A DNA stretch of 63,281 nucleotides, the filler included, from Hausera hauseri (lineage: Eukaryota), in NCBI GenBank assembly GCA_046269625.1. It is 12 parts of 12 records of this genome, joined end to end, with 100 filler letters (N's around TTAATTAATTAA, not from the genome) between each part and the next. Parts side by side here need not be neighbours in the genome. Positions count along the whole stretch, not along the records: positions 4,056 to 14,936 come from JBJURY010144424.1; 11 more parts are not named here. One strand, 5' to 3'. Made by a program: the position numbers and the translations under genes. Positions 910 through 46,428 of this stretch are shown here, one piece after another. Position 1 is the first letter of the stretch. Each line of letters opens with the position of its first letter. A model generated the notes under the pieces. The model worked only from the letters and a program-made list of their open reading frames with translations, did no database searches and was not told the DNA's origin.

Positions 910-2284
910 AGGTAAGGTTGTCCTCAGCTTTAAGGCATAGGTTTCTAGGATACCGTTGGAATATTTATAATTAGCGGAACCTATCCGCAACCACTAATTT
1001 CCTTTTCGAATCTTCCTTTTAAGGGTAACTGTTTTTCGTGTAGTTCTTTTCTTCTTTAAAGATTCTGTTAAATCCACTAGGATAGATTCGTTGGAACTGC
1101 TTGCAGGGAGCGATTGATTGATAGTTGGTTGGTTATGTTAGATGTTTCAGGGGTATCGTTAGTATCCATCTATTCGCATTTAGAATCATCTGTCAAGGTC
1201 AATGTTAGGAATTGTTCATTGTCGAGCAGAATTTCGTTTACGGTTGATTCTGGTTTATCTAATTGAGATTGAATGGGTAATTTTTGGAGATTTCCTTTAT
1301 TGATTTTATATTCGTTCATAGAATTGTATATCTTTAATATTGTTGCAGCCTTCTCCTTGGCACGTTGAGGATATACGATGTCATTAAATTTCATTAAGAC
1401 TTGCTTATGGGTCAATGTTTTATCGGGATTTATTTCCGGATGATTTAAAAGATCCCTAATTCCTAATATTGCGTTGGTATCAAAAAGATCAAGGTGTTTT
1501 AAATATCAATTCCAACTATCATCTTTCCATTGAGTTTTTTTCTAATAAGGGATCTAACTTGATAGGCATCTATCTATCCGGTTAAATCTACTTGTTTTAA
1601 TGCAGTGATCGGACTGTTGTAATTATCTATCCGGTCTCGTGGAGTAACGAGTTCGTCCAAAATGATATCTCCTTCAATATCCCTAATGGTTAATTCCACG
1701 AGAGTTGTCTCTTTGTTGCGTAATGGGGTTAGAAGGAAAGCAAAATTTGTTGCCAATATGGCTATTTGATCCTTTGATTTCAGCGGCAATCTGGAGAAGG
1801 ATATTCCGGTTGTGAGCTGATCACGATTGGGTAAATTTGAGGGATATATCGACTTCTCATATTCGATTTTAGGGAGGGTTTCTCTTCGCGTGACCTCAAT
1901 GTAAATTATCGGAGATGGGCCTCCGTAGGTTCGTAAAATAATTGTCACATTCCGGTAAAATTTCTTGTCCACACGAATCGTAGTATATGCCGTGACATCT
2001 GAAGTGTCAGTAAAATCATTTAAGTGTGCTCGGCTTTTTATTTAAAGATGGCCTTTTGCCGTAGACACAAAGACTGACGTGGTTTGACTGGAGATGTCAA
2101 TTAAATCTGAAAGTTTTGTAGAAGTGTTAGGCAATTTCATTATCAATCCGGATCTTTGATGGAGAAGATGGCCTTTTAAGTTGTTGGGTATGAGATTTGC
2201 CTTACCATAATAGACATAATCTTTGTTGTCTGTTTCATTCAAATTGCTGATAATGTTATAATAAAAAGATTTGGTTCTGTCCAT
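910..2284 (-). pseudogene. Decayed 3' accessory gene: unknown N-terminal domain plus inactive REX4/ISG20-like DEDDh exonuclease fold
   Basis: ORF pieces 2042-2284, 1574-1972 and 1170-1415. VELTIRDIEGDIILDELVTPRDRIDNYNSPITAL matches the REX4-type pattern VSIVN.G..VYD..VKP...I.DY.T..SGI, but the DxE motif reads ATNF. Broken by stops and frameshifts. Confidence 0.65.
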
Positions 2285-2325: not shown

Positions 2326-2958
2326 TTAACCAAAATGATTTAGAGATGGGAATATAAATAAAGGCATTGTCTTTAATTTATAGTTTTTGTAGATTGCAAA
2401 AAATTTCGTGACTTCATTCTGTATCTTTGTACAGTAACACACGGTCATGTCTATTGGTCGACAAACTTGTTGTTTACTTGTTTGATTGTTTTCATTAGGG
2501 AGACTTAATTGGCAGTCTTGCCATTCTGGATTATTCGGCTTTTTAGCGAATGGCTTTTGGGTTGACGGGCAATTCAGCCGTTTAGGAGTATGTGGAATTT
2601 CATCTTTGGGCGCACTCATTTCCCCTGTTAACATGTTTTGGGAGTCTTTTCTTAAAAGTCTTAACTGGTTTATTATTTTTCTTATTTTACGTCGTCGCTG
2701 TCTTATTTTTGAATAATAGATTGTTAAGGGTAAAAATATTATTAATAATATTAAAATAACGCATAGTACTCTAATTATCCAAGGGTATTTATTAGAGGTT
2801 TCTCCTTGGATTGGTATGATAGTTGTTTTCATAACTTTCTTTGTGACAGTCATAGGTGATTTTAACGTTTTCTCTTTCTTTCTGAGAACTTGTAGGATTT
2901 GTCCGTCTTCATCTAGCTCTGTTATCACAATCTTATAATTAATGTCGGGTTCCAGGGT
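2326..2958 (-). CDS. 5'-truncated FN3-end plus transmembrane protein of the LTR element
   Basis: In-frame extension upstream of the called start reads TLEPDINYKIVI (FN3 L.P.T.Y motif). It is followed by TM WIIRVLCVILILLIIFLPLTIYY and a basic stop-transfer RQRRRKIRK. Confidence 0.5.
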   Translation of the reverse strand, partial: TLEPDINYKIVITELDEDGQILQVLRKKEKTLKSPMTVTKKVMKTTIIPIQGETSNKYPWIIRVLCVILILLIIFLPLTIYYSKIRQRRRKIRKIINQLRLLRKDSQNMLTGEMSAPKDEIPHTPKRLNCPSTQKPFAKKPNNPEWQDCQLSLPNENNQTSKQQVCRPIDMTVCYCTKIQNEVTKFFAIYKNYKLKTMPLFIFPSLNHFG

Positions 2959-3586
2959 TGCTTTCAGATTTTATTTGACCTTAATGTGAGAACCGTTCAG
3001 GAGGAACACTGACGGTTTATCCTAACTTAGTAGAATTTATAAATCCGGCAGATTACAGGGCCGGAATACCAAAACGTGTTAATATTTTAATATTAGTTAA
3101 TCCTTACTACTAAATATTACGTAACTATACTTTACAACAAAACTAAAATCAAATTAATATGTATTAAAATAATTAATTTGCAATCTATTACCAAAAGAAT
3201 ACAAAAATTAATGAAAAGACTTACAAGTATTGTAGTGAAGCATCATAAAAGTAAGTACGAATTGTCGTTCGTTATCACCAAAAAAATTGTGTTTCAGTCA
3301 TAAAAATTACAGTATTTATACCAACCCAACATAAATACCATTACAAGAAAAATTTACATTTAATTTATATTCACTACAAAGAAAATAAAAATCAATTAAG
3401 ATGGTTACAGGATAAACAGAAATCAATTTAAAATTCCAATACAGGTAATTTATTTTATCTACTCATATTTCATTGTTTATTTTTCTTTTAGGATTGCCAA
3501 TTCAAAATTGGAGTACAGGTGATCACATTGTTTGTTTTTCCAACATGTTTATTTTTAATTTAGAATCAGCGATTGATTACTGTACA
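2955..3586 (-). repeat. Second, 3'-truncated and diverged copy of the 148-895 LTR
   Basis: Direct repeat, e.g. ttatttgaccttaatgtgagaaccgttcaggaggaacactgacgg (2971) vs ttatttgaccttagtgtgaaaaccgttcaggaggaacactgacgg (295). Starts TGTACAG on minus at 3586. Confidence 0.8.
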
Positions 3587-3955
3587 ATATTGTGAAAGAC
3601 AAGAAGACAGTCACAGAAATTATCTATATCTATTACTGACCCCGATCACCAGTAACAGCTGTCGAAATTATATTCGAAAGAGAGATAGCATGTCCCAAGC
3701 AGCAGGGGCAATCGCGTCAAATTCAATGATAAAAACATATTTTTCGAAGATATTCACCGAAACTCTCAACGTTTTTGTCCATTCAAAGACTTATACTTGT
3801 CGATCGAGAAATGATACTCACGTTCTCGAATGTCGCGTAACGGATCTTATGACAAATAAAGATATCTCCGGAAAGTTTACCATTCAATGGTCGTTTAAGG
3901 ATACCAGTGGGAAAGAATTCAATCCGACAGATTTGGCTCAAATTGTCGAAACTCA

Positions 3956-4055: not shown

Positions 4056-5600
4056 AAAAGCAAACAAAGAGAGGTTAGGACCTACGTTACCCAAGGTTCT
4101 GAGAATACACGTGAAAAGGAAGAAATGGTGGCGTTGAGAACAGTAGAAGTATCGTTAATTAATGGGAATAAAATAAAAAAGGCAGTAATGTTATTAGACG
4201 ACGCTGGTACCGAAAGCTTCGTCGATTCAGGGTTGTGCGAAGAGTTAGGTGTCAGTAAGAAGACGGAAAAATTAACGATAACCGTTGTCGGAGGGAAACA
4301 GACCAAGATGTCTACCGATAGGGTAAAAATGGTGTTACTAAATATGGAACGGTCAATGGAAGTTAAATTTGAATTGTTGGCCATGAGAAAACCTACGGGA
4401 CGAATGAGGACGGTAAATTGGTCTATAGAAAAACAGAAGTGGTTACACGTGAAGAACATAAATTTTCCAAAAATGTCACCCAGTTTGAAAGTGGACGGGT
4501 TTATCGGGGTGAATTTTATGGAACTACATAGGCCGATCAAGGAGGTGTACGGAAAAAAGGGAGCGCCGGTGGCACGATTAACCCCGTTAGGTTGGACATG
4601 TGTAGGAAAAATAAAAAAGAGAAGGAAAATTATAAATAGCACTTTTGTGAGGGCCTTCTGGACTAGAACAGAAGAAATTCAAAATGATTTAAGTCGGTTA
4701 TGGGAGGTAGAGTTCAATATGGATGTAAAAGAGTCTGCAAGGTCTGAACAAAAGGAGAGAGCAGCGAGAAGGATATTAGATGAGATGACTTACGAGGAGA
4801 ATAGATATTGTGTGCCGTTGCCATGGAAAGAAGGAGTACAATCTAAGATGGAAAAAATGAATGGATGGCACATAAACGGTTAGAAATTTTAAAGAGAAAG
4901 CTGAACAAAGATGAAACGGCAAAGGCAGCTTATGAAAAGGTGATAGAAACTCATACCAAGGAAGGATATATCCGAATAGTGAAAGAACAGGAAGAACAAG
5001 AAACGGCTTGGTTACTTCCGAACTTTCCGGTTATGAAGGTCGATAGATACACCACGAAATGTCAGATCGTTTTCGATGCTGCTTCAAAATATCGAGGAAA
5101 ATGTCTGAACGATTTCTTGGACCCCGTCCCGAAATTACAGTTGGACATTGTGGACATTGTATTGAGGATGAGAAAACAGCCGTGGGTTGTCATATGAGAT
5201 ATCCAGGAAATGTTTCTGCAGATCAAGGTGAAACAAGAAGACAAAAAATATTTGAGGTTTCTTTGGTATAAGGAAGGAAAATTCAAAACGTATGAATTTA
5301 ATCGGTTAGTATTCGGATTAAACTCTTCCCCATTTCTGGCACAATTAGTGTCAAGACACAACGCTGAAGTTTTTAAGAAAATATTTCCCCGAGCTGTAGA
5401 GACGATAGAGTGTTCCACGTACATGGACGACTGTATCAACTCAGTTGACACCGAGGGAGAAGCCGTATCGTTATATGGGGAACTAAATAAGATTTGGGAA
5501 GAAGCTGGGATGAAACCACACAAATAAATGTTCAACTCTGTTAAATTAGTGAAGATAATACCTGTCGTAAACCAAGTTAAGGAATTCCACATATAGGATA
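4056..5600 (+). mobile_element. BEL/Pao LTR retrotransposon pol fragment (protease, RT), decayed
   Basis: MLLDDAGTESFV protease, ARLTPLGW, RYCVPLPWK, TTKCQIVFDAAS, DIQEMFLQI, VFGLNSSPFLA and YMDD are all BEL/Pao motifs. Contains frameshifts and stops. Confidence 0.9.
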
Positions 5601-6340
5601 ATTTGTTCGTTCGTAGATGCAAATGTCCTTTATTACGGCCGCACTGTCTCGAGTAACGGCTAATCCGACTGCAAAGAGTTAACGGCTAAAAGGGGTTCAT
5701 CAAAAGCAAATAGGAAAACAGATGCAAAACGTTACACAAAACACGTTAAAAACAAATCTAACTGGTCTAGACAAAAACGCAGAGAAAATAAATAAAATCA
5801 GAAGATAGGCAGGAAGTGTCAATAGATATACTGGTGGCCCTATGTTCGGAAATGGAACGAATAAAAATTAGTAGTAGTATTAGTAGTTTGAGCAGAACCT
5901 GTCATTCCACTCAGTGAAATAAACAAACAAATATTATATGCATGAACAAGGCACTTGACAGACCTGAGTTGACAGGACGATTCGTCTTAAGCTTCAAGTG
6001 TGATGCTCACCTGACCATGCCATTCCCTCACTTCAGAATCTCACAATGCGGAGATTAATGCTGATTACGAGTGTGAGGTTCTCTGACAGTCCCCTCTGAG
6101 GCCACTGATAATATTTTCCTATCTACAGATCTGCCATGCGATATGATAACTGGGCTTGAGAAACCGTCCATTTTCCGTGGCATCCACATAACGTTAACAG
6201 AGGACAAAAATGAAGATGACTGTAGATTTGTGCAGTATAAAGAGCGTGACTACTTACTAACTATTTAAGATCAATACAGAAAACAAATGGTATTTGCATT
6301 TAACTGTCAAGTCTAGTATTAATTGTTTAATACCTTTCAG

Positions 6341-7047
6341 AATTGACGAATGTGTCTATGACACTACTTTCATGACCAAGCAAAATAGATGTAACATAAC
6401 CTATAAGGAGTATAAAAAGATGGCTAGATATAATGACATAGAAATCACTGAAAACTTGTTTGTACTAATTTACCCTAAACAAGATAGGATAGCATTCAGT
6501 TGGAATCACCAAATGAATACACGGAATACTTGGGTGAGTATAACTTGTATAAACCAACATCATCAGCAAAGAGTTATACTTGAAAGGAAACAAAAATACG
6601 TCTACTGCATAGGACTAAGTTCAGATACTGAATATTTAGTAGTAGTAAAGAACTGTACTCATTATTCAGAGATCTATATTAAAACATTGCAGAAAATAAA
6701 TGAAGTAGTCAAATTTAGTTATGATAAAAAAGATGCTAGGAATGAACCTGTGACTATGAAGCCAAAAATTGACAATGTCGAACTAAGTATTACAATATGC
6801 TCTTTGTTAATTATTGTATTAAGTATAGCTTTGTTGTTTGTGTTGGCTATAGGCACTTTAATTATTCCAAAAATAGTTCGACATAATCATACTGACACTA
6901 TCACGTGTCACTGCCCACTAATTTCAAGATGGCGGTCGCAGACTAGTCATCAGCACGAGCAATTACCGCACGCACTACACGCGCCCCCACAAATAGTTAC
7001 ATTATTAGCATATTCATTGGTTATGTGTTGTTTACACACCAACAAAG
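6341..7047 (+). CDS. FN3-like ectodomain plus transmembrane protein (probably spliced) of an LTR element
   Basis: 5' part of ORF 6294-9086 after acceptor cctttcag (6340). Contains IAFSW...GLSSDTEYLVVV (FN3 pattern) and TM LSITICSLLIIVLSIALLFVLAIGTLII. Confidence 0.5.
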
Positions 7048-7103
7048 GTGAGTATTTAAATGAATTTTATTTATTTCCAGCTCTTTGCAAATTTTCCTCA
7101 AAA

Positions 7104-9086
7104 ATGAAACGTCAAAATCCGAAGATGAATAAAACCGAAACACAGATACAATCCAACCTACTATTTTCCAAACTCTGTCCTCAGTATCACGCAGATCAAC
7201 TGGATGCGGCAACTCTAATGCAAAATTACGGAATCAAGAAGGGCACTTTCAGTAAAACTATATCGAAGACTTTTTATAACAATATAAGAAGACACTTAAT
7301 AAAAGAAGAAAATTTCGTAGCTTTAAATGTGGTTCGAATCCCGAACCAACTAAAGCACGAAATTACCGTGAATAGAAACCTCGGAATTTATCAAATCACT
7401 GAAGCCCGCCAGATAGAGCTAAAAAGATATATGGCAAAAACTGACAAAGTAGACGGACTCGTTATTCATGTAGCCAGAGGCATGATTTGCCTAAAAACTA
7501 GAAACGAAACCCAATTCAAGGACCAGAGAGAAAATCTCATATACGAAGAAGAAAGTCAGTTTATCAATACACCTATGAGTGTAGACTTGTTGCAAATAAG
7601 GCCTGTATACCTTCCGGTAATCCTGATGATCGAATGGCTTCTTCCAGAGAAGCATCTATACCTACCACGACCAATGATTCTAGCGCAGAGTCCTCCAGAG
7701 CTAATTAAGCAGAACGGGTTAAATTTTATCAACACGAATCAAAGCAATACTGTTCGGATATTAACAGTGTCTATCGGATATATGGAAGATAACAGTCCTT
7801 TGCCAATACACGTCACGGTAGCAAACAGAAAAGGAGCAATTTTATATGAGGCTATAGTAGCTAATAGAAAGAAACTACATAATTTGAACTCCATAAGACA
7901 CGGCATTCTCTCAGATATTATTTCCAACTACGGACAAGACATATTCGATGTCACCAAGGAGCTAATCAATTGGATATTCGGAACAGTGGTGATTGGAGTA
8001 GAAACACACAAAATGCTCGAGATTTTCGATATCCCCCTAAACTATCTTGCCGGGGTCGTGGACATACTAAAACATGAGGAGATTACAGGAAAAACGTTTC
8101 AGCAGATAACTCTAATGAATGCCAGCATGTTGCTCAAGTTACCTGGACATCAGAGCGGACAAGGTTATGAACAGGATAATCGAGGGAAGTTGAAGTTTAC
8201 AATGGATATTTTCAGATTGATAGTGGATCCGTTAAAAGTAGCATGGTGCCCCCCAGATCCATTTAATAACTTTGTAGATCCAGCAGAATTGTTTTATGAT
8301 GGAGAAAAATATCTGACAGATTTTGCCTGGATACACCATGTAGCAGGAGGATCGAACAAAAATACGGAAATCCTAATAGATGAAATTATGGATGAACTAA
8401 AAACTCCATCAGTCTCAGATATATCAGACATAGTGGCAGAAGAAGAAAAGTTACAAATAGAGGATCGAATTCCCGAAGTTGCGGACAATAATGATGAAAA
8501 TGGGAGAAAGTGGGATTATGAAGGCAGACAAATGAGTTCCGTAGCCATACAGACTGAGGAGACAGATTTCACTAGATTCACTAGGAGAGTCATACAAGGT
8601 TTGGAAGCATCAGAGACATTTACTTTCCCCTTCGGTGTTATCGTGTACACAAGGAATTTTAGTTTCCCAGTAATAATAGATTCGGTAGAAGCTCCTTCAT
8701 ATATCGATCAGACTATAACCAAAATCACTCTACAATCTTGGGATACCTACAGTAATGAGGTTATTGGCTTCATCTTCGAAAGATCCATAGATATCAAGCT
8801 GCTCTATCTGTTTGATAATTACGACAGACTATATCGTCTGCCTATCCGGTTGGACATAGATTTCAACAACAATCTTCCCATACAATTGAAAGATAAATCA
8901 GTAATAACAAAGCTAAGAAGTGAACACAAAGGAGGGAAGCTGATATACATCCTGATAATGAAATATAAGAAACCTTGTTTGATCCCAATTGAGAGAGTGC
9001 CAGAAAAGAAGAGACCAGATCCAGATCAGACCCTGACATTTCGGATCGAAAATGACATTCGTAACATTGTGGATCTTGACTGTTGA
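7104..9086 (+). CDS. LTR-element 3' accessory protein with inactive REX4/ISG20-like DEDDh fold (open frame)
   Basis: ATG follows acceptor ttatttccag (7080). IHVTVANRKGAILYEAIV...HGI...IFGTVVIG...VVD aligns by eye with REX-type exonucleases and with paralogues at 33051 and 54228. Catalytic acidic residues are absent. Confidence 0.65.
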   Translation: MKRQNPKMNKTETQIQSNLLFSKLCPQYHADQLDAATLMQNYGIKKGTFSKTISKTFYNNIRRHLIKEENFVALNVVRIPNQLKHEITVNRNLGIYQITEARQIELKRYMAKTDKVDGLVIHVARGMICLKTRNETQFKDQRENLIYEEESQFINTPMSVDLLQIRPVYLPVILMIEWLLPEKHLYLPRPMILAQSPPELIKQNGLNFINTNQSNTVRILTVSIGYMEDNSPLPIHVTVANRKGAILYEAIVANRKKLHNLNSIRHGILSDIISNYGQDIFDVTKELINWIFGTVVIGVETHKMLEIFDIPLNYLAGVVDILKHEEITGKTFQQITLMNASMLLKLPGHQSGQGYEQDNRGKLKFTMDIFRLIVDPLKVAWCPPDPFNNFVDPAELFYDGEKYLTDFAWIHHVAGGSNKNTEILIDEIMDELKTPSVSDISDIVAEEEKLQIEDRIPEVADNNDENGRKWDYEGRQMSSVAIQTEETDFTRFTRRVIQGLEASETFTFPFGVIVYTRNFSFPVIIDSVEAPSYIDQTITKITLQSWDTYSNEVIGFIFERSIDIKLLYLFDNYDRLYRLPIRLDIDFNNNLPIQLKDKSVITKLRSEHKGGKLIYILIMKYKKPCLIPIERVPEKKRPDPDQTLTFRIENDIRNIVDLDC

Positions 9087-9282
9087 AACATTAACTTTGT
9101 GATTCTACAAGCATGCTACTCCTTCGTTTCGTTTGATTGTGTCTTGTATTTTAATCCCTTCACCTATAATTGTAGCTTTTATTTTATTCTCTATTCTGTT
9201 TGGTCTATATGTACATATTATTTTTTTTATTATTAATAACTCCTTTAATTTCGTATGTCTTGGTCATGGTAAATGACCCCTT

Positions 9283-9295
9283 AAGGGTCGGGGAT
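9283..9295 (+). promoter_or_regulatory. Polypurine tract followed by LTR start (TGTTG at 9296)
   Basis: AAGGGTCGGGGAT|TGTTGTG about 200 bp after the ORF stop, the same layout as 56480. Confidence 0.6.
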
Positions 9296-9900
9296 TGTTG
9301 TGGATTAGTCAGCTAATAGTCTAGACTAGTTGGACTAGTCTAACCTTGATATTTAAATATACTGCGCGCGGCTAGTTTAAATTGCCGATTAAATTGAGGT
9401 TTGCGCCGGCGCTAGATTTGGATTAGGAAAAAATTATATAAATACTTGGTTGAAAATCATTAAAGGGACAACAAACAAAAACAGAAAAAAATTTCTATTG
9501 GTCTAGCTTTTAGACAAATTTGTGGAATTTATTGCTATTTGCGATCTGAGGCATTGAAGCTTAATTTGAAATTTCTAGATAGAAATTTTATTTGAAATTT
9601 TTTGGAGTAAGTTTTAGTAGATAATCGTGTTAGTTAGTTATTATCTTTTATTGGTAAAATTGATCATTTCATTTACATTTTTGTGTACGAATTGTGTGAA
9701 ATTATATTTATTTACTTAGACTCATTTCTGTTTATAAGTAAAATATTGAAGCACGTCTTGCAGAGAAGGCGTAGCTAATTAAACAAGTCTTCTTATCTTT
9801 TTCCTTAACACAGCAAACACTTACATATAATTAATCAGTATAAATTACCCTCAGATTTGTACTTAAGAGTTTTCGTTTAAGAAATTTATTTGAGAATTCT
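9296..9900 (+). repeat. Putative 3' LTR (end not determined)
   Basis: Begins TG after the PPT. TATATAAAT near 9436 is followed by short GT-AG intron-like segments (9654-9719, 9738-9813). Confidence 0.45.
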
Positions 9901-9921
9901 TAAAAAACAATAATAATATCT

Positions 9922-10515
9922 ATGGCCAATTTCAATAGATTTCAGGATAAAATATTTTCAACAGACATACTAACAGGTCTATTAGAGTGTTTCGTACATT
10001 TTCCATATAACGGTTACATAGCTCATCTCACTGATCAAGATATGGACAAAATCCACACGGGAGAGCCAAGCTTTGTATTTGCGTTATACGTGCAAGCACT
10101 TGCTAGCTTCTCAACACCAAATTTATGGACGATTCTTTTTATGGCTACTTTCGCTTTGCATGAAATCCAAGCGACGATCATCATCATCATCGATATGTTA
10201 GTAATTGCTTGTGCCGATACATTTTTGGTCCAACATAACTTTAGGCAAAAAATTATCCTGTTGATCATTGTTTGCATGGCTATGTTTATTGGATCTTTTC
10301 TGTTTACTATTCCGAAAGGTGGCATTTGGATGTTAATATTTGGTGTCATCAATTCTACCTATGTGGATATAATTCGTGAAAAAGCGGTCTTCTATGGTCA
10401 ACTACAACAAAATATAGCGACGATACGGGAATGTATCTTACTATCAATTACACAAATTGTCGACTCACGCCAACAACCACAAATACCATTATTTATTTTA
10501 CCTTTCTCGGTATAG
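9922..10515 (+). pseudogene. Intronless, diverged fragment of an SLC6 (sodium:neurotransmitter symporter) gene, about TM7-TM10
   Basis: GEPSFVFALYVQALASFSTPNLWTILF resembles SLC6 GPGLAFIVYPEAL..LP..PLWSILF. VCMAMFIGSFLFTIPKGGIW resembles C...FL.GL...T.GG.Y. Confidence 0.65.
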
Positions 10516-11562
10516 GTAAATATCTCTCTGAAAACAGTGTCCAAATCTATAGTGACGACTTGTTCAAAGCCTTATGTATCTTGAAGAGGTTTGATAACCA
10601 AACTCACTGTGATCTTTTAATTAATAACATTGTATCTTCCACCTACGAAAAAAAAATTAATGTTGACGTTTCATTGAATATCTATTCTGATCCAACTTTT
10701 ACAACGCCGGTCAAACGTAGTGAACAGTTATTTAAACTCATTCTTAATTCAAACCGAGAGAGAGGAGCAACGAAATCATCAATGTTGATTAGTAGGCGAA
10801 TTGCTGAACCGATTATTTTGAGTAGCCAAATGAACCAGGGTTCGTTTAACCATGATGATGAATCTGCAATAGCTACTGCATCTAACGTAAAACGAGTCGC
10901 ATCGAGACCCATACGTTCTGTTGCCAGAGTCTTTGTAGCTTTTCAGCTACAGATGGCTCCAGATTATAACCGTAAACGCCATCAAAGTCGACTTAGTAGT
11001 AACGTTCACGTTTCTTCACACGAACAAGACCCTTAGTTGTTTGTAAATGATTTCTCTAACGTCTACCTTTTGCGTCTTTGTCCGAGCTACCACGAATCTC
11101 AGCGGACATTATTGTTCTTGCTCGATGTGGATTATTGAAACCAACTACAAATTATTCGCATCTTTATCAAATTTCTGCAGAATTCCAAACTTTTATCAAA
11201 TATTCCAAACATCTATACCAGATAACACCCTGCATTTTCGTGCCCGCCATACCGAGGCGGAGGTTCCGGCCGCCAATCCTGCGCCGGTCGGTCGGACGGC
11301 GCCTTCTGCGTCGGCCCCACAGCACGCCACCAGGCCCACCTCTGTTCCCACTTCCGTTTTTTACTTTTTTAACAATATACATATTTATACTCTCAACACA
11401 ACACATCCACACATTCCCACTCTTCAGACCCGCATATCTTCTTTCCTTGGTTCTTCTGACTTTTATCTCACCCATCACGGTACTATCATACATCTCAACA
11501 AAACTTTACTTCCCTCTTCAAATCATGCTTGCTTCAACATACATCTCCATATCCGTGGTGGC

Positions 11563-14936: not shown

Positions 14937-16047
14937 NNNNNNNNNNNNNNNNNNNNNNNNNNNNNNNNNNNNNNNNNNNNTTAATTAATTAANNNNNNNN
15001 NNNNNNNNNNNNNNNNNNNNNNNNNNNNNNNNNNNNTCAGAAATAAGCAAAAAGACAAAATTGATGAAATACAAGTAAAAAAGAGAAAGTCATTTTATGA
15101 CTGTGACCAGAAGAAAGACTGAAGATGAAAAACTAAAAAGATTGCGAAAGAAAACCCGAGAAACAAAGAAACCAATAGAAAATAGAATAGAAGATCAAAA
15201 GCAGGAAGTTAAAACAACCAGTTAACAGAACAAGAAAAATCAAGACGGTAAACAGAAGTCAACGCATTATGGAATAAAAGGACAAATGAAAAAGAAATTA
15301 CAAAGAATGAGTTTACAAAAATATTGGTAATGGCAGAATACAGCAGTCACCGGAAAATAAAAGAAGCAATGTTCTACGTAAAAAAGGTAGAAACACGAGG
15401 AGCATACGAGAACGCCTATTTACAGGCGAACCCCAATATTTGACGATATTTGGCCCCAATTTTCTGATCTGGGACAAAACTGTCGCTGCCAATAGATACC
15501 AAAGTTAAAATACTACTAGAGAACCAACACCAAAGATGTCGGAGCGATGCCCACATCCCAGATTGACACAAGCAAGTTATCCATGATTGGACACTAGTTC
15601 CCGTGAACTATTATCCGATGAAAAGTTCAATTAATACTGACGAAAAAGTATTGTACGGTTACTTGTATCAAGATCAAGATGGTCTCGTATTTGAGCCAAC
15701 AGAACATATTACCAATGTAGACTTAGACAGAGACGACGGTGAAGAAGAAATCACTTTTCCCGTATGTGGAGCTGTCTTGAAGCATGGACCTTAGAAAACG
15801 ATGAAACCATTGATCCAGTATGTAGAGCGGTGGTCACGCAGCTGAAATATTATTCTAACGGACGAAATAACCGGGTCGTAGAAATCCGGCAAAACAGCAG
15901 CTGTCAATTAGAGGAAAGCCCCCGACGCGAACAGGAAATTGAGGCACACGATTCAGAAACAAGTCTACGCAGAAGATTGAATCTACTAAAACGACTGCAT
16001 CAAGACGTCACCTTTCCTGATGCAGTATGCTCGTCCGAGGATGCCGT

Positions 16048-16468
16048 TGTAAAATGTCTCCAGTCGATTGAATTATTTAGTTATAGTTGCATTGTCTCAA
16101 TCTAAAATGTCTCTAGTCGATTTAATTATTTAGCTAGCTGTAGTTGAAATAATTATTAGTATCCATCATTGTAAAAAGGATTCTTACTATTGTAAAAGTA
16201 TTATTTATCAGCCAATATCTGATTAACCACTAAAGGTGCTAACCTCCATGTTATCAAAATCAAGAGTAAAATATATAGGTAAGTGAGTTTCTAAATTAAA
16301 ACAGGACAATACACGCAATATCCGCAATTATGAATTAAAATAATAAGTATGGCACATCCCGTTTTATCGACATTGATAAAACCTTATTCACACAAGTCAA
16401 CTGAAAAACTTGAAGCATAACTCATTATTATAGACGGGAGTTGTGTAGGACGAACCGTAACTATAACA
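16048..16468 (+). repeat. Putative LTR (5' boundary tentative)
   Basis: TGT...ACA with an internal tandem duplication (aaatgtctc.agtcgatt twice), ending 2 nt before a PBS. Confidence 0.45.
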
Positions 16469-16470
16469 TT

Positions 16471-16487
16471 TGGCGACCATAGTAGGA
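16471..16487 (+). promoter_or_regulatory. Primer-binding site (tRNA-Arg type)
   Basis: TAACA-TT-TGGCGACCATAGTAGGA, a TGGCGACC-type PBS upstream of gag. Confidence 0.7.
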
Positions 16488-16890
16488 GAGTTGGTGCCTC
16501 GCTAGACTATTACTTATTACAGTTAAATAACGACACACCGGCGATCAGCACCACTCACATAAAGTGACTGAACTATAGTTTGAAACTTAAAATTTGGGAT
16601 ATAATTTGAACAGAATCAAATAAAGATTAATACAAGAACGAATATTGATAAGTCAAAAGTAAATCTTAGTATAAATGATAAAGAAAATTCGCCAATACGC
16701 CAGACGCGTAGAAGTATATAGGAGTAACAAAAATCTATATAAACGTTCGCTTTTTGAGACTAGAATAAATTCGCTTGATATAGAATCAACTGTTGTTGTG
16801 TAAACCGTTAAGTTTAAAATTCCTCACATAAGAGATAAAGTTCATAAAGATAATAAAATAGATTTAGAAATTAGAAACGAAATTAATAAT

Positions 16891-19800
16891 ATGGCAGCAG
16901 ACAATATCTTTACATTTGACTCTGAATCTGCCGGCGTATGATGGTAACCCGGACGGATTGAATGAATTTCTGAGAACCTGTAAATTGCTCGCGGAAGGTG
17001 CCAGTCTTATTCTGAATTGATGATTAAACGTTTGTCATTATATCTGAAAAATTTGGCTACTGATGCCTATAATGATCTCACTAATGACGAAAAGAAATCT
17101 TGGTCCTTCCTGGTAGGAGCCTTTTCACGGTAAATTACTTCCAAGAGTGACACAACAACAGAAACAGCATTTCAAAATGGAACGCTGTAAAAGGGTGAAT
17201 CGGTAACCCAGTTTGCGTTTGCATTGTAAAAACTCGCTAATAGTTATGTAAGTACGTTAAGAATAACCAATGTAGCTAAGGCTAAAAATGATGCAGAACG
17301 CGAGGTCTAAGAGAAGGTACGTCCTTCAGATTTAGACGTCATGACGAAATTAATCAATGGTATCTGGTGGAGGGATTAAGTAAAAGAGCTAATTTTAGCC
17401 AGACCAGAAAATTTAGAGAAAACCTTGCAGTAGGCTCAGGACTTAGAAATGATACTGGATAGATATGCCAGACAATGATAGGGACAACAGGAATAATGAT
17501 CCAAACGATCGTAGAAACCGGAATGATAATCGAGGTAGAGATAATAGACGATTTAATAATAATAGAAATTATTAAAGTAGAAACCAGACTGCCAATAATG
17601 ATTACCGAAATAACCGATATAGTAACAGGAATTGTTGCAATGACCGAAATGCGAATAATTCAACTAGTAAGTCAAACTAGGTACAATAGAAATCACGATA
17701 GTTATAACAACTTTAATAATGGAAGTCGGTATAATGAAAACCGAAATAATGATAGTCGACGGAATGGAGATAATGGACCAGGTCTGTCAAATCACAATAA
17801 TAGAAATATGAGTAGATCAAAGTCACCTGTAAATGTAGATGGTCGACAGAGTCGGCAAAAATGGCAACTTAATTTGCTATACATGTGGTAAGGAAGGACA
17901 CAGCAAGGTCATGTCCAAACCCGCGTAGCGTGGCATTCGCCGAGCCCAATAAAACTAGTACGATTAAGACTAACGAGAATTTGGAAGCTATTTATGGTAC
18001 TCGAGCAGATATAAATATGGTTATTGAAACCCACGACTTACGGAGGTATGTAATGAGTCAAAGTGAAACTAATAATCCACAAGTTTTAAAGGCTAGAAAT
18101 TAATACGAGAAAAAATTACGATTAATAGAAGTTTACTATGGGTTGATAGAGTCACAGAGTACGAATATGCTATAGAACCAAAGCGAACTGATATGATGTG
18201 GAAAAAGAACGTTCCTGTAATTAATAAAGTCATGGATAAACCACATGAACTTAAAACTTCAACATAAGTAGACTTAGACGAAGAGTCTGAGTATACTGTT
18301 GAAAGGTCAACAAAACTACAGGTGATATAGATGAAAAGGAATTTATGGGACCACTAATACTCACAATAACGAAGAATAGAGGATAGAGTCCTTAAATTAA
18401 ACGGAAACGCGAAAATCGTTCGTGATCTCCAATGACCAAGGAGAGATTAGTGAAAGCAAAAGAAACTGAAATCTCTGTAGGAAGCGATGTAGAATTTAGT
18501 TTAAATATACCAGAATTCGGTTAGATCGCACCTGCCGAAGTAGAAAGATCAGTAGAATTAATAAATGAAATAAATCACATGTCCGTTACCTACTAGTGAG
18601 GAAGAAACAACAAATCGAGAAGTTCGATCAGAAAAGTGGAAAATTCTACGATCATGGCAAAATTTCGATGAATTAGAAAGAATGAGAGTTTGCTGTCACG
18701 ATCCAGAAGTATTACAGCAAAACTTTGAAAAACTTAAGCGGATGAGCGAACAGATAGATATCTGCGGCGAAGAACAACAATTTGCTGAAAAATTGTATAA
18801 AAGTTTGAAATCATGTAGTGAAGGGATATTAAATAAACCAATCGACTTAGAGCAACCTGAAGAAGTACCAACAGAAATGTTATCTAAATGGAAACATGAA
18901 TTATAATCATGGATAAGAAGTGGAGTTGAATTTTCAGAAACGTGGAGTAAAATGGAAGAGTGTCGATGTAAAAGTTGCTAAAGTTCAGAAATTATTAACC
19001 ATGTTAGAAGCAAATCCGAAATTAAAGAATAAAGCGTAATTTAGAACAAGCAGTGGAATGAATTAAGTTTGCAATGATTAATCGACTCAGAGAGAGACGG
19101 GTTAACGAATGGAACGAAATCGAATTAGAAATATTGGGTATACGCCTAGGAGATGATAAAAATTGCTTCCACTGCACCTAAATAATATGCGAATTTAGAG
19201 AATCGCATTAAAATTGGGAACGAAAAGCTTGCATCTTGGAATTTGACAAGTACAAAGACGAATTTAACTATGCCAACCAGGTCATGAGTTTTATAAAAGG
19301 GCCAGGTTATGAATTAAAAGATGCTTATAAAACGCTAAACAGAGCAATACTGGAGAAACCCGTAATAACTAACCAACTAAAGGAATGGTCCAAATTAATA
19401 TTGAGACTAAGTCAAGTAATGAAAAATCGTATAAAATAATTCCCAGAAAGCGAAGTGATAGTGGAGAAACAATTGGGGGAAATTTCAGGAAATTTAGATA
19501 CTATGAGAAAAGAGGTAGACATCTGGACCCAGTTCAACATACTATGACAACTAAAAATTATGGGTAAAAGTAGAGATGAAATTAACGAATGAAATATATA
19601 TGATTGAAAGGACAGATTTTCATATAAAACTAGACATGACTTGTGACCTCTATCCGAAATTAAGGAATGTAGAGTTTAGGCGTCCAACAACTAACTGTAA
19701 AACCCATAAGGAAAATTTCTATCCAAGAAGTAAAACCATTAGACATCTGTCTAGATTACGAACTGTCAATAGAAAGGACACTGAAATTTTTACAGTACCC

Positions 19801-20120: not shown

Positions 20121-20322
20121 TACCAATGTCAACGTGACACACAACGATATTGTATAAAATTTTCATCAAATTGTCTATTACAAATTGCGGGAATGATAGC
20201 AGCAAGTTTCGCTCGTGTCTGGATGGTGTTTTGAGCAAAGCAATAAAGTACGGCTGACTACGTTTAAATCGCATTTTTGGACGTATTGATTCTGAGACGT
20301 AGTTGTTTATAACCGTTGCCAC
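20121..20322 (-). pseudogene. Polinton small ORF (paralogue of 60497-60838)
   Basis: MATVINNYVSESIRPKMRFKRSQPYF is nearly identical to the ORF at 60497. Confidence 0.75.
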
Positions 20323-20499
20323 TGTGACGGTAATTTGCGTCTAGTTGTTGTTGTTGTTGTTTTTCGAAGCACAGGATTGATTGATCGCTTGACTGTAGCG
20401 GTTAGTTTTGAGACAAGTTTCTTGTCGGGCACCCGCTTGGTAGATTTACGTTTAACAATTGTTTTTCGAAAATTCTTTATTTTATCACAATTATGTCGT

Positions 20500-20850
20500 C
20501 GACTTTTGAATTTGTTTATAGACCTATACACCTTTCTGATTGAAAACGTCTGTTTGTACAAGCATGTCATCGGGACACTGTTGGGTAAAGTTTATGAACA
20601 AGTATCTGTGTGGCTCGGTCGTAGCATCATGATATGCATATATCAAGTAGGCTTGGTTTTGAGGAAATGCTTGTCGTGCAACATAATCAATGATAGTCTG
20701 ATCACGGGAATTTTTGAACAACAATGAATAGTATACGTTAAGATTTCTTGTTCGATGTTGTCCGCCCTGATGGAACATGTTTTGCATAATGAAAATAACA
20801 GACACATCACGGTGTCGTAAAATTTTCGTAAACAGGTTGATGAACAGGTT
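20500..20850 (-). pseudogene. Polinton packaging ATPase, C-terminal half
   Basis: LFTKILRHRDVSVIFIMQNMFHQGGQHRTRNLN...LFKNSRD...PHRYLFINF is the A32-like ATPase C-terminus. Confidence 0.85.
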
Positions 20851-20969
20851 ATTGAAATATACAACAAAACAATATACATAGGATATCACAGTTAGGATTG
20901 TCACAGTAACTGAACTGAACTGAACTGATTTGTCTGAACCGACAGAGCTCCAATTGTTTAAACATGCGT

Positions 20970-23900
20970 TTATTTCAGCCGCCAGTGTCCATACGCCCAA
21001 CTCTTATTTTGTCTCACCCACTTTCGCTTATCATCGTTACATGACAAAGCTACTTTCGCACTCGTTATTTTGTACAGCTGGTGTTCAATTGATCGGATGA
21101 TCGTTTGAGACACAACAGCCACTGATTGTCCTCCTTCTGCCGCTTCTTCACATATACGTCGATAATCACCGTGACTTAGTTCCGTCTGTTTCAGCTGGAC
21201 TGCTTTGCCCGCATTTTCGATCCACAGTCCGTCAGAAGTCTGTATTACTTTGGACGTGGGAATATCCATTCTTGATGCTGAACTCTGCCTTCACTCTCAT
21301 CCTTGAAGCAACTAATTTTGTTTGTGATGGCGTTGCTGTACAATGGATGATTCTGTGGGTAATTGGACGTGTCAAGTAATCCATCGTCCATCGTTTGTCG
21401 CAGTAGTTGTTCGCGATTGACGTTTCCCAGTTGCAAGAACAAACTATCTGTGGCACCGGAAATTATATTGATCTTGCATCCGCCGCCGCCGACGAACATT
21501 TGCCGGCAACGTGCCAAATCACGATAGTGCAGCTCATACATCCGCAACTTGCTCAAATCCAATACCACTTGTCCTGTATAACTTGGCCGGTCTAGTACGA
21601 CTTCTTCCCTGTTTAGTAGCACCGCAACTAATCCATCGGCAATGTGCATTGACCGCCAAAACTGTCTTCTGCTATACGTAACCAGCCGCTTTTCCGAGTT
21701 ACATAGGCGCATACTGAGCCGCTTTTTCAGATTCTCCACTGTTTTTCCGTACAGGGAATTGTTTTTCAGATTGTAGTAGTCCTTTTCGAACTTTGTACAA
21801 GCTACGACTCATTTCTCCGAATTTCCATCTATGTACGCCTTAAATATAGGCGACTGATCAAACCGTATTGCACGATGAAGCTGTGTGACGCATACACCGA
21901 GCTGCATGTAAAACTGTAGCAGACGCCAATGGACCACGTAATTCAGCTTCGGTCCATGCGTCATGAGCAGTTTCTTCACTTTTGAACCTGGCGGATATTG
22001 GTTAAATGGTGCGACCTGTAAATCGTCCAAACGTCATGCAGCTCATCTGATACCACGAGATAGACATCCATCAGGTATCCGACTAACCCTGCCATGTCTG
22101 TTCATGGTTGGTTGACCATTATATCGTCGAGATCTTGTCTGTAGACAACCCATTTGAATGAACCGTACGGCAAGGGTTGTGAAAGCGCCCAGCCGTACAG
22201 GTTATTAATATCGATATACAGCAGTGATGTGGTATGGTAGCATGGACCTGATATTTGTTGACAAATGTCATGCTGCCGTGAATACCAACATTAAACAGTC
22301 GGTACATTTTCGGGTCTTGCAGCAGCTCAGTGTCTTGATCCAGTGACATTATAGCTGACGCTCATCTAATTCTCGGTATGGAATAAAAGTTGAGTGGCTC
22401 TAGCCTATCTTCAGCCAACGCTTTCGCTCGAAACACTTGAAACACATCGGCTAATAAGTACACGTCCGGTTTAAGATACTGGTGCATGTAATTCAACATG
22501 TTTCTACAGCCGAGTTTTGTTTAACGCCTCTGTGCTTTCCGGTATTCATCCTCTGCGATACTTGTCCATCGCGGCGGTAATTCCTCTGCTGCCCGGAATC
22601 GCTCGTATGATGTTGCAAAGTCATGTGGAAATATGCCTTTGCTGCGTGAAATATGTGCGGAGAACTGCGTCAGTGCTATCGGCACATCTGGCAAGGCATT
22701 TAACAGCTTTGCCAATGATTTATTGAGAAATTGTAATGAATCAAAGAAGCGTACCTGTAACCGGTTTATAGAAGCAGACAGTGACAGGTATTTCTCCATC
22801 GTAGTCGGAATTACGGACAGTTCTCAGTGCGAAAATCCCTTTATTGCACATTTCAAAATATGGTGATAATCAAAATTCATGAAGTTATGAAATACCACTG
22901 GTAAGAATGGCCGCACACGCCTTGCCAAATTGCATGAATTACATGCTGCTCCGAGATATCGATCAGTAAAATGATCGTTATCCGGTACGAACCATTCCAG
23001 TGCGTCAAACGGTAATATTTTGTGGCACAGGTAACATTCATCTGTGACTGCAAACGTCAGGCGTTCGTATTCATTTGTCCAGATCAGATGTTTGGTACTA
23101 TTATCTCAAGACCACGGTGCGATTTCAGTTTCCACTATGGTTTGCAACTACTGCAAGAAATCGCCTACACAATTCCACCATGGAAAACATAATATTGAGG
23201 TTGACCTGCGGCATTTATTGGGACAACCAACATACCTACGGCGATTGGAACATGTTTTTGTCACACATGCTGTGCTGTGGTAAGATAGCTTCGATATAGG
23301 CATATACTACATATTCCGGACTGTCTGTTTTTGACAAATTAATGGACCTGAGTTCATGTTTGACGGGTGTGACATACATTGTGGTTCCTGACGAATTTTG
23401 TCTGCACAGAGTCACATGTTTCTCCTATTTTGTTTCCGACCTTAATCCATGAAGACATACAGAACACCATTTACAATGTATTTGTTTTTGTAGGAAATGG
23501 TTATGCTCCATGTTCAGTAGTCTATCCAGATTTGTCACCGAAACGTAGTGGTACTTTTCTTTCTGTTTCAGTAGCAACAAATTTACTGAGCAGCCATTTG
23601 GGTTTCAACTACGATAGATTATATCCACACGAGGATTTTTGTAAATTTCTTTATTCGCCGGTATTTCTACGATCGTGTTATACAGGAACATGGTGATTGC
23701 CAGTGTCGGATTACGCCATTCAAATGTCGGAATGGATTTCAGTTTCATTGGCATCCAGGCTTTATCTAAATCCAATTCGGAAAAATATTTCTGATACTGT
23801 TTTGGGCAAAATGCACTATGTCTGTCCACATTGTCATATTTCAATACCGCCAGAATACTGTAAAGAAAACAGTATTCATCTTTAGTATTTTTTACACTCA

Positions 23901-24495
23901 CTACCACCAGAAACTGCTTCAGAGCTGCAGGTGTCGGTACGAATGATCGTCCAAACAAATATATTATGTCACTCGACTTTGTTATGATAATGCCGAGGGT
24001 GACAATCTTTACAATTCGCCATCCATTACCATTTTCCATGTAATTGGCGATTTTTTCCTCGAGCTTTTCGCCAATCTTAGAGATAAAATTCTCGGTATAT
24101 GGTACAGCTCTATGTGACAGGTACCACTGCTTCCTGTCGCCTTGCACGTTTTCGAATTCTGCAAGTGCATAATACTGCACTTTGCAATTGTGTTGGAATT
24201 TGGCCACTTCAGATTCCAACCGGTTTCGCATAATGGATGGAGCATGTCTCAATTGCGTTGTTGTTGTTGCTGTTGTCGCTGACATGTTCACTTTTATATC
24301 CACGTACGATTTTTTCAGATCGTACATGACAGTAATGCGTGGTTCCTTCCCCTGTTGCTCCTGTTTCTGCTGCTGATGTTCCTTCTGCTGTTTTTGATTT
24401 CTGTTGTTTTGCAAGTATTTATCAAGGCTTGTTGATGCCTGACGTTTACTACTTGTTGAGAGAATACAGCTGCTGCTGCTTTTTGCTGCGTCCAT
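20970..24495 (-). pseudogene. Polinton/adintovirus protein-primed DNA polymerase B with endonuclease VII-like insert, decayed
   Basis: CFLYSILA; CYLC...DHFTDRYLGAACNSCNL; PVVFHNFMNFD; FFDSLQFL; KGIFPHDF; YIDINNLYGWA; KNNSLYGKTVEN; LDLSKLRMY; TDSL; KVALSCNDDKR; AYGHW. Confidence 0.92.
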
Positions 24496-24577
24496 TAATG
24501 TTTGTTTTTTTCGACCGCTTAAACTTGTTTAAGTGGCCATTGTGCTGATTATAAATTGTTCATAGTTTATTTGATCA

Positions 24578-24914
24578 TCAGCTAAAGAACAACAGGGACA
24601 TACATAGTCCCGTTGTGGTGCCATAGTATTGCTCCATTGCACTATGGCAACCACCAACCTTATGCACTTTATTGGTACAGTAACGTGGGTACGTGGGGCA
24701 ATGCACAACCATCATATTCTTTGACCGCGTGAACGGCCCGAGATGATACTTGTGCATCTCATAAAAGTCGACATATGGGCATTGCGTTGAAACACAGCAT
24801 GTTGGACACACATACGTGTCCCTGTCCACTTTGTAATATTTCGCCATCTGTTCATGGCACGGCACGTCTACATATATGAGAGAGACGCAATACATGGGAT
24901 ATTGCTTGCATTTC
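24578..24914 (-). CDS. Small Cys/His-rich Polinton protein, likely spliced
   Basis: 105-aa ORF with CPTC, CPY, HKYH, HCP and C..H motifs. On minus it is preceded by acceptor tttctcatttag near 24915. It lies directly upstream of pPolB. Confidence 0.4.
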
Positions 24915-26877
24915 TAAATGAGAAACAAATTAAAGTAAATGTTAAATGTCATACAAATATATATAAACTTATTTATAATTTAAATTAAAATTTACTTAAG
25001 TTACACTATATACCGTTCCTTCTATGATGGTAATGGTGGTGGTGGTTGTGGTCTCAAGGCTTAACTTACTCAGCTATAAGCATTTACCATTCTCAGCATT
25101 TAATTTGTATAAATTAAATGGAAGAGTATATTGAAAGTGAAAATCAGAGATTGACCGTGACATTTGGCCAGACATGTGTTTGATGTACAGTTTTTATATG
25201 GGCTCACAGAAGCGAGAATAATGAGCAGGCGAGAGTATACTGAAGTGATAGTTAGATCTGTCTTCGTAAAACGTATCGAGGATGGAATGAGACAAAAACA
25301 ACTACAANNNNNNNNNNNNNNNNNNNNNNNNNNNNNNNNNNNNNNNNNNNNTTAATTAATTAANNNNNNNNNNNNNNNNNNNNNNNNNNNNNNNNNNNNN
25401 NNNNNNNTTAGCTCTATTTTATCTTCTTTTTTTGCATGACAAGGCCTCTTTCAGACCGAATTGGCAAGAAAGGCGATAACTGTGAGAATTAATTTTGGTC
25501 TTAATCCACTCTACGCGCCCGTTTGAACAAGAATGTAGTAAAAGTTTAATCGTTTTCCGCATTCATCGCTGTTTTCTCCACTTTTGAAAAACGTATATCT
25601 AGGTTCCACTGTAATTTTAAATGTTTTGTGGGCATAAAGTATAATATGAAAATGTTGTTGAAATGCTCAGTATCATAACGTTTCTGTCATGAGATGAAAA
25701 TATTTCCAACAGACTTTCGAATAAAGTTCATTCCGAGAAATTACTTATTATTTCTTCTAAAATGAAATAAAGCTTGCTTGTCCTGATCCTATACGACGCT
25801 TCATTTCTAGACAGTCGATGTTGTTATTTCGCTTCAGCTTCAAATTAGACTTAACTTCATTACCATAATTTCATTACACGATAAACGCTCAGTCGAACAA
25901 TTCCTTATAACGAATTACTCCAAATAAACATCGTACAGTATAGTATGTCTCAATTTAGCCTTCTTTTCTTTCTTCTGTCCTAAGAAATTTTATAAGGCCA
26001 ATTATAGACGTGAAACGGCAATTTTTTAACTTCCTTCTTCAATTTTAAGTGCGAATTATGAAAACTATACGTTTTCTTGATCAAACCAAACAAAAAGAAA
26101 CCAAATAACCTGCGGCCGAAATTCTTCGCTCGTTTTAGCCAGCCACTTTGTAACGGAACTCATCTTTTCGTCTGAAAAATAAATAAATTTAAATAAAAAT
26201 TAAAATAAACAGTTATTTCTTTTATTAACGCAAGATTTCCGCTTAATTTATTTTCAATTAAATATAGGTAATATTATGTACATATATTTTTATTCCATTC
26301 TTCCGTGACTCACCGTGAGACAGAGTTTCCTCCAAGTTGATTAGTTTCCTGAGAAGTTCTTTAATTAGTTTTTATAAAAATATTTATTTATATTTTCCAT
26401 ATTTTTTAATTAATGATAGTAAGTTTTAATGTACATTAGGAAAATTACATCGACCCAATAAATGCGATATGTGGTTTTCATTATAAGACATTTTAATTAA
26501 AATATTGTGCCTTGAATACTATCCCCGTCGAAGTATTACTTCACTTCATATTCCATTCAAATTGTTATGTAATACATCAAGACACTTCGAAAAAGTTTTC
26601 ATCTATTATTCCCTTCGTTTGCGTGCCATCTCTATTCTGTCGAACTGAAAAATGTTCACCTATTCTGAAATTGCTATTGTGTTATCATTCGACTTCAAAA
26701 AGTTTTCTAAACACCGTAATATCTGAATATTAGATGGAACAAACGAACAAACAGTAAAAGACAAAAGATAAGACGTAACTTGAAAAGTGCGTTAAGTGAT
26801 AAACGACTTATTTTATTATGTAAACATAGTAAAATAGTTAAAATAAATTGAGCATTCAAACTAAATACCTTTCAGAA

Positions 26878-45943: not shown

Positions 45944-46428
45944 TAAAAAATATTTGAATCGCTCACAAACAGTTCATGAGTCGATTAGCAATATGTAGGA
46001 AAATGACTTTCGTTTGCTGAAATAACAATATAGATTTTAAAACAGAGCAAAAATTATGATTGAGATTTGCTACAAAAACCTATTGGGATCTATCCATTCT
46101 GAGACGGTTTACGGGATCAAAAAATTGAATATTAATGATTTCGAACGAGAATGAGGGTTATTTGCCGCATTCTATAATATGAAATTTCTCGATGTAATAA
46201 ATCAAATTAAAATAGACAGAATTTAGTAAAATCCTAGATTTCACAGGAATTAGATTTTAGTTTACCGATAGCTTGAATTAACCCACATACTATGTGCATA
46301 TATAGTACGTACAAAATCAGATAAACATTGTTCTAATATAGTACTGGGAGAAGTAATTTTTAAAATATACAGTTTTATTTTTTCGTTCATGTAGAATTTA
46401 GAATATAGTTTAGCTTATTTGCAGTGTT

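Follow-up and report, generated by a model that had tools for sequence, protein, structure and literature searches.

We analysed a 63,281-nucleotide window of the genome of the animal Hausera hauseri, which consists of 12 contigs of 4-11 kb joined by N spacers, and describe here a gene of its second contig (4056-14936) that encodes a probable fibronectin type III (FN3) domain and a transmembrane (TM) helix and that lies next to the 3' end of a long terminal repeat (LTR) retroelement. The plus-strand stretch 6261-9086 forms one uninterrupted open frame of 941 codons, in which the FN3-TM part runs without a stop into a gene of the DEDDh exonuclease family; the separate FN3-TM open reading frame (ORF) of the preliminary description is thus not what this copy contains. 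The frame opens with a coding part (6261-6425) that holds three cysteines and one N-glycosylation sequon and shows synonymous differences in other copies. It is followed by the probable FN3 domain at 6426-6728, with seven strands and two cysteines common to all three repeats of a protein from a metagenome locus, L001. The signature peptide GLSSDTEYLVVV begins at 6612, and 59 residues further on stands a strong TM helix (6789-6866; Kyte-Doolittle 19-mer 3.21) with a net charge of -1 on its N side and +1 on its C side. No other helix in the 941-residue translation exceeds a Kyte-Doolittle value of 1.6, which leaves a single TM helix behind an ectodomain, as in type I membrane proteins. The tail (6867-7103) stays open into the exonuclease, with 0 stops in this frame versus 5 and 5 in the other two. 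Within it lie a donor-like GTGAGT at 7048 and the acceptor TTTCCAG, whose last base is 7080, and a 33-base in-frame intron (7048-7080) is possible, if unproven. A GC-richer patch with CAAGATGGCGG and ATTGG motifs (6900-7050, plus strand) ends at the same donor-like site and might, as we presume from these motifs, supply the exonuclease gene with an internal promoter and a short first exon.

The assignment of the domain to the FN3 fold comes from structure modelling. The Pfam profile fn3 (PF00041) matched neither the 6426-6728 domain nor the three L001 repeats at E values up to 10, and a PDB sequence search with the domain found nothing. From a four-row alignment of the window domain and the three related repeats, AlphaFold2 built a model with seven strands, a predicted local distance difference test score (pLDDT) of 62.9 and a predicted template modelling score of 0.58, compared with a pLDDT of only 45.6 for the single-sequence model. 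Foldseek searches with this model reached a best E value of 8e-4 at template modelling scores of 0.40-0.52, and 32 of 41 rows among the matches listed named monobody, adnectin, FN3 or TENCON. The leaders in VIA-align (Z 7.0-7.5) were cytokine-receptor, Tie2 and fibronectin chains, the best with Z 7.5, a root-mean-square deviation of 3.7 and 85 aligned residues, and the TSLP, IL-20 and IL-22 receptor complexes were among the upper structural rows; the viral structure library yielded no match to the model at E 0.001. FN3-TM proteins also come out on top for the window protein in the ESM Atlas, with fend at 0.92 and FNDC9 and FNDC5 at 0.91. FN3 domains share a core pattern of Trp in strand B, Leu in the E-F loop and Tyr in strand F, and these residues are present in the modelled strands (IAFSW, GLSS, TEYLV). 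The WSXWS motif, which marks class I cytokine receptors, is absent from the window and L001 translations on inspection. We conclude that 6426-6728 is probably an FN3 domain, a fold that the model supports and does not prove, with a predicted topology of moderate confidence.

Downstream of the tail lies a dead exonuclease gene of the ISG20/REX4 type with a conserved N-terminal domain and 11 homologues (7104-9086, plus strand; core about 7206-8093). A profile built from these 11 homologues, none of them from the window, matches 6261-9083 (E 3e-47) and three pieces of contig 1 (E 3e-18, 1.5e-6 and 0.014); a family profile matches ISG20L2 (E 3.8e-23) and ISG20 (E 2.6e-12), and RNase_T is found in three of the 11 homologues. 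The five catalytic columns of the contig-2 gene hold T, S, E, Q and K instead of D, E, D, H and D, the last two columns being loosely aligned. The preliminary description had called this exonuclease dead and placed a polypurine tract and an LTR behind it, and both observations were confirmed: the tract with TGTTG, the presumed start of the 3' LTR, lies at 9281-9300 (tract and TGT at 9281-9298, plus strand). Contig 2 has no long direct repeat and hence no second LTR copy. Catalytic residues are lost in eight of the 11 library homologues and intact in P0005, P0007 and P0010, and all 11 align solely from query residue 275 on. In the exonuclease tree, which omits P0011 and the frameshifted gene of contig 1, the active enzymes cluster (94/94), and the window gene forms a long branch whose placement is not firm. 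No member of this exonuclease family was found in viral contigs. The window holds a third dead gene of the family (53910-57420, plus strand; start 54228), followed by a polypurine tract, an LTR from 56495 and, downstream of it, a primer-site-like TGGCACCTGAA at 57403. A fourth, also dead, lies at 33054-34130 on the minus strand, and 37 bases at its stop occur again at 32387-32423.

The order of signature peptide, TM helix and DEDDh-family gene occurs on two contigs, as had been stated before. On contig 1, TLEPDINYKIVI begins at 2958 on the minus strand and is followed 59 residues later by a TM helix (Kyte-Doolittle 19-mer 2.98) and then by a frameshifted DEDDh-family gene (1173-2284, minus strand), with a polypurine tract and TGT at 912-893 and an LTR from 895. 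The segment of FN3-like remnant, stalk and TM helix (2713-2958, minus strand) is cut at 2958 by a truncated LTR copy (2958-3586, minus strand; 83% identical to 282-895), and only 11 residues of the FN3 part are left. The earlier proposal of an FN3 signature in both contigs is thus supported for 6426-6728 by the model and by Foldseek, with Pfam silent, and reduces to this short remnant on contig 1. The remnant was unmatched by FN3 profiles, Pfam and PDB, neither blastn nor tblastn showed it to resemble the 6.4-kb copy, and 97 of 2000 shuffles reached the score of its alignment to the contig-2 domain. Position and spacing tie it to that domain, if marginally. The signature pattern occurs in exactly three places versus 0.085 expected, an excess that we do not count as support because the pattern was derived from those three places. 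Beside the truncated LTR, a 130-codon frame (3564-3953, plus strand) has a weak immunoglobulin-like match (V-set_CD47, E 0.006).

We compared 11 exonuclease loci, namely six (L001-L006) that a metagenome scan returned with six of the 11 exonuclease homologues as queries, and window contigs 1, 2, 3, 6 and 11. L001 carries an ORF of 504 residues (1-1512) with a hydrophobic N-terminus (Kyte-Doolittle 2.18), three repeats, a TM helix and a basic tail. The window domain aligns to its third repeat over 103 columns (22%, pairwise E 0.007, score reached by 30 of 2000 shuffles), and when 2145 segments are ranked by a profile built on the L001 repeats, the window ORF comes first after L001 itself (E 0.022, next 1.1). 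In L001, the FN3-TM gene is followed by two coiled-coil genes and only then by an exonuclease, which has intact catalytic motifs and is widely separated from the contig-2 exonuclease on the tree; the claim that the FN3-TM gene immediately precedes a dead exonuclease therefore does not extend to this relative. The FN3-TM gene is present at three loci (clear in contig 2 and L001, a remnant in contig 1) and absent from two, L003 and L006, where 5.3 and 3.2 kb 5' of the exonuclease contain RING, coiled-coil and TRAF genes instead; the other six (L002, L004, L005 and window contigs 3, 6 and 11) are uninformative because their upstream DNA is too short. This tally makes the FN3-TM gene an optional member of a variable 3' gene array. 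The conserved cassette that had been proposed survives in part: FN3-TM recurs near a DEDDh gene, polypurine tract and LTR in an independent metagenome element, yet the pairing is not fixed.

Wider searches added no further relatives. The FN3-TM protein had no homologue among 96 candidates of 129-412 amino acids, residues 1-274 had no covering homologue in 1.84 billion representatives, the L001 protein and repeat profile recovered only themselves in the protein search, and no FN3-TM homologue was found in metagenome and viral contigs. The tails of the four copies show no mutual similarity; that of L001 (1345-1512) has two tyrosines and ends in GVWV, which we take to resemble a PDZ-binding end. 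The starts of the two coiled-coil genes of L001 (1806-3058) share 73% identity over 94 bases and mark a tandem duplication in the array. The arrays of L003 (1-6727) and L006 (54-4652) comprise RING, RING, coiled-coil, RING, a full TRAF-like gene (RING, zf-TRAF, MATH), two coiled-coil genes and an active-type exonuclease, and most of these genes begin directly after an acceptor.

Contigs of the sequencing runs X1 and X2, aligned onto 4056-10600, inform on the state of the contig-2 copy. A possible broken gene start at 5852-5945 (plus strand) has a basic start, a short aliphatic run and a small residue, followed by a frame change and stops, and is weak and of low complexity; at 5932 the depth is 1341, and some aligned contigs have a 3-base deletion. 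A low-depth stretch (5946-6260, plus strand) then interrupts the gene and spans most of the upstream exons proposed earlier at about 6047-6289. Since the bin 6027-6245 has a depth of 3.5 and one run-X2 contig that matches 6262-6497 diverges from the window past 6262, this copy is interrupted near 6261. The proposed upstream intron (6290-6340) was rejected and is read as coding, because the loose ends of other copies, read by hand, preserve the reading frame over 6273-6340 and differ there by series of synonymous changes at third positions. The spliced model with upstream exons is not supported. Among the variants listed, eight of 12 in the ORF and two of three in the FN3-TM part are synonymous. 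FN3 profiles detected no second FN3 repeat in any frame of 5600-6430. Depth, which is not copy number according to the tool's own warning, is 1664-2696 over 6246-6902 versus 93-165 over 7122-8435 in run X1, and 75-80 versus 0.8-6.6 in run X2. Judging by this contrast, the FN3-TM block seems to be repeated far more often than the exonuclease.

The type of the element can be read from related contigs. In L005 the order is exonuclease, pre-LTR motif, LTR, a TGGCGCCCGAAC primer site at 4621 and a gag gene (PF03732, zf-CCHC) of the Ty3/gypsy type, and the pre-LTR motif is common to five of the six metagenome loci, L001 included. Contig 3 (15297-17900, plus strand) contains the tail of a P0001-like exonuclease-RING gene (44-50% identical, E 7e-41), a primer-site-like TGGCGACC at 16471 and a decayed gag, a piece of which resembles the L005 gag (E 4e-5). 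The decayed contig 10 (49136-53809, plus strand) carries a Bcl-2-like domain (PF00452, E 1.6e-5, below the cut-off), a gB-like Env (PF24664), protease, reverse transcriptase and RNase H; its fusogen, at 50246-50746, is on a separate contig from the FN3-TM gene. RING or TRAF-MATH cargo, which L003 and L006 carry, was not seen in the window's own element. On contig 2 itself, a decayed protease-reverse transcriptase remnant (4056-5600, plus strand; Asp_protease_2 E 0.0024, RVT_1 E 7.8e-10) stops before RNase H. We take it to be Bel/Pao by its motifs, and it is probably a non-cognate pol. Taken together, the architecture appears to resemble that of planarian elements.

The layout of the arrays also suggests how they might be expressed. 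Of the 23 array genes in the six metagenome loci, 18 have their start 0-3 bases past a pyrimidine-AG acceptor, compared with 11 of 576 other ATGs, and acceptors lie 23 and 10 bases 5' of the window exonuclease starts 7104 and 54228. This would fit a separate spliced mRNA for every gene, produced either by cis-splicing or with a spliced leader. Rfam lends no support to a spliced leader or other RNA, since no family was found in the window, L001, L003 or L005.

In the reading we favour, large, Burro-like Ty3/gypsy LTR retroelements with a host-modulating gene array carry this gene as an optional accessory, and the stretch described here holds one damaged copy of it; we give this whole reading an even chance. 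That the gene is an FN3-TM accessory gene, as read, is likely, and given this identity, a role in host modulation is somewhat favoured, the function being inferred from the company the gene keeps. In this model, each array gene would be translated from its own spliced subgenomic RNA, and the FN3-TM gene would give rise to a type I membrane glycoprotein whose FN3 ectodomain, held by a disulfide, is exposed at the surface of cells with an active element. Most likely, this protein would mimic a receptor: by binding a ligand or receptor of the host, it would dampen signalling in stress, immunity or cell death, beside the TRAF, RING and BCL2-like cargo of such elements. A ligand-binding mimic is our lead reading because the genes that surround the array position in relatives belong to signalling, ubiquitin and cell-death pathways.

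Several observations weigh against this reading. As to the fold, the ESM Atlas recognition values (2005 and 1721) are below the reliability mark of 2300, no VIA-align Z reaches 8, non-FN3 sandwiches tie (C2 and glycosidase at Z 6.8-6.9), and the fold model uses the same alignment as the L001 homology. That homology is weak, if collinear, and the L001 profile is partly circular because its rows were drawn from an alignment made jointly with the window row. The contig-2 copy has no intact signal peptide, and the basic patch after its TM helix is weak. The FN3-TM depth is about 15-25 times the exonuclease depth in both runs, for which a simple one-element model does not account. The acceptor pattern was picked after the start sites had been inspected, and the loci are not independent, L003-L006 being close kin. 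Lastly, the upstream pol on contig 2 is Bel/Pao-like, and the FN3-TM gene shares no contig with a gypsy pol or env. The membership of the FN3-TM element in the Burro-like Ty3/gypsy group is therefore likely but unproven.

Among the alternatives, the open frame itself speaks for a fused receptor in the dead-exonuclease lineage, that is, one type I protein with FN3 outside, a TM helix and a cytoplasmic RNA-binding pseudo-exonuclease, which may tether genomic RNA or a host nuclease partner and of which an internal acceptor could yield a shorter soluble form. It stays a rival, if a rather unlikely one, because 281 codons are open before ATG 7104, including 81 codons from the TM helix to the ATG (chance about 0.008), and 106 codons to the contig edge before the second dead-type gene at 54228 (chance about 0.0002), whereas the six active-type loci are open for just 1-29 codons. 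Against fusion, all 11 library homologues begin matching at query residue 275, the L001 FN3-TM gene ends at its own stop, the contig-1 TM frame stops before the exonuclease (in a copy that is frameshifted), the four tails are dissimilar, and an acceptor lies 5' of ATG 7104. A broader version of host modulation seems unlikely to us: that giant retroelements of the flatworm type carry an immune-modulation array in the style of large DNA viruses, expressed via a chain of splice acceptors and with a captured receptor ectodomain in it, that in the dead-exonuclease lineage this gene is fused to the pseudo-exonuclease and yields a surface receptor with an RNA-binding cytoplasmic domain, and that many more element copies share the FN3-TM module than any single exonuclease gene.

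Some enveloped viruses use separate attachment proteins for cell specificity, and the FN3-TM protein could similarly be the attachment partner of the gB-like fusogen, on the virion or at cell contacts, and confer cell specificity. Its type I glycoprotein anatomy with sequons, the gB-like env in the same genome and the common use of FN3 folds as binding scaffolds are consistent with this role, but the env is on another contig within pol-side coding sequence, related elements have no FN3-TM over 3.2-5.3 kb 5' of the exonuclease, the repeat number varies (1 versus 3), and the array neighbours are signalling and ubiquitin genes. We rank this idea below the receptor mimic because the env is unlinked and the gene optional, and consider it quite unlikely. 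The depth contrast in both runs and the marginal likeness of the contig-1, contig-2 and L001 proteins would also be expected if the FN3-TM block were a separately mobile or host-derived high-copy module that landed by the exonuclease, with the L001 match a convergent capture. This is improbable, as the block is intronless, three elements share its strand and 3' array position, the spacing from signature to TM helix is equal in two copies, two cysteines are in common with the L001 repeats, and the protein database searches recovered no host homologue. Least probable, and by our estimate very much so, is that 4056-5600 is what remains of the pol of a Bel/Pao element with an internal deletion, of which the cassette would also be part: the remnant is on the same strand, 650 bases upstream, and a run-X1 contig covers 5574-5944, but it stops mid-pol, the depth falls to 19 at 5589-5807, and the same exonuclease family adjoins a Ty3/gypsy gag in L005 and in window contig 3.

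Placed beside known systems, the putative accessory receptor has partial parallels. Host single-FN3 membrane proteins (FNDC5, FNDC9, FNDC4 and insect fend) give Atlas feature matches of 0.91-0.92, but host FN3 proteins and cytokine-receptor ectodomains share no detectable sequence homology with it, it lacks WSXWS, and its structural scores are tied with those of other FN3 and non-FN3 sandwiches. Large DNA viruses encode cytokine-receptor decoys, captured ectodomains that stand beside anti-apoptotic and ubiquitin genes; here, the ectodomain would be in a reverse-transcribing element, and its binding is predicted. The closest retroelements are the planarian giant Ty3/gypsy elements Burro/GYPSM1, for which excerpts of two papers describe RING, TRAF-MATH and BCL2-like cargo and an env between BCL2 and protease (PMC6431247, PMC13465017). 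Window contig 10 has the same BCL2-env-protease order, L003 and L006 carry RING and TRAF, and Burro accessory ORFs are separate or fused, according to the same excerpts (PMC6431247). These excerpts name no FN3-TM or DEDDh gene for Burro and place its cargo mainly inside ORF1, in contrast to the 3' array of acceptor-led genes here (PMC6431247). A Burro-like element would be expected to span 25-30 kb between two LTRs; the contigs here measure 4-11 kb. In the bdelloid rotifer LTR elements Juno and Vesta, extra ORF3s encode a DnaQ-like exonuclease or small TM proteins; as excerpted, these exonucleases are of the DEDDy type with intact catalytic residues, there is one ORF3 per element, and FN3 is not mentioned (PMC5408684). 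The family described here is instead of the ISG20/REX4-type DEDDh kind and dead in eight of the 11 homologues. GAG-ENV-POL errantiviruses with an HSV/gB-type env have env before pol in Nematoda, Bryozoa and Platyhelminthes, as in contig 10, and neither FN3 nor an exonuclease occurs in the excerpted text or seven supplementary files (PMC13524379).

Our literature searches found no retroelement-encoded FN3 protein; the primary Burro papers and Repbase entries lay outside their scope and may annotate these genes. We probably describe a new type of accessory gene within a known kind of giant retroelement, and the comparison suggests that the extra genes of these virus-like elements include look-alikes of receptors. 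Cargo of this sort can be of consequence to the host, since an excerpt reports second-hand that one Burro gene protects planarian stem cells (PMC13465017). The known extras of LTR retroelements are mostly fusogens, enzymes and intracellular regulators. If our reading is true, an FN3 receptor-like protein that distant elements have kept in a swappable array with TRAF, RING and an ISG20-like (pseudo-)nuclease would extend this cargo to the cell surface, and the elements would resemble complex viruses. The acceptor-per-gene layout, in turn, offers a testable answer to how an element of 25-30 kb expresses many separate genes.

Other parts of the window contain genes beyond this system. Past the presumed LTR of contig 2, an intronless fragment of a sodium:neurotransmitter symporter lies at 9904-10512 (plus strand; PF00209, E 2e-13). 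Polinton- or virus-like pieces with weak DNA_pol_B_2, Endonuclease_7 and RNA_helicase matches occur at 20121-25307 and 59675-60701, and within them 20121-20844 matches 59975-60701 in inverted orientation at 84%. An autophagy gene of the ATG10/ATG3 type is present as a single ORF at 45470-45973 on the minus strand (PF03987, E 9e-20).
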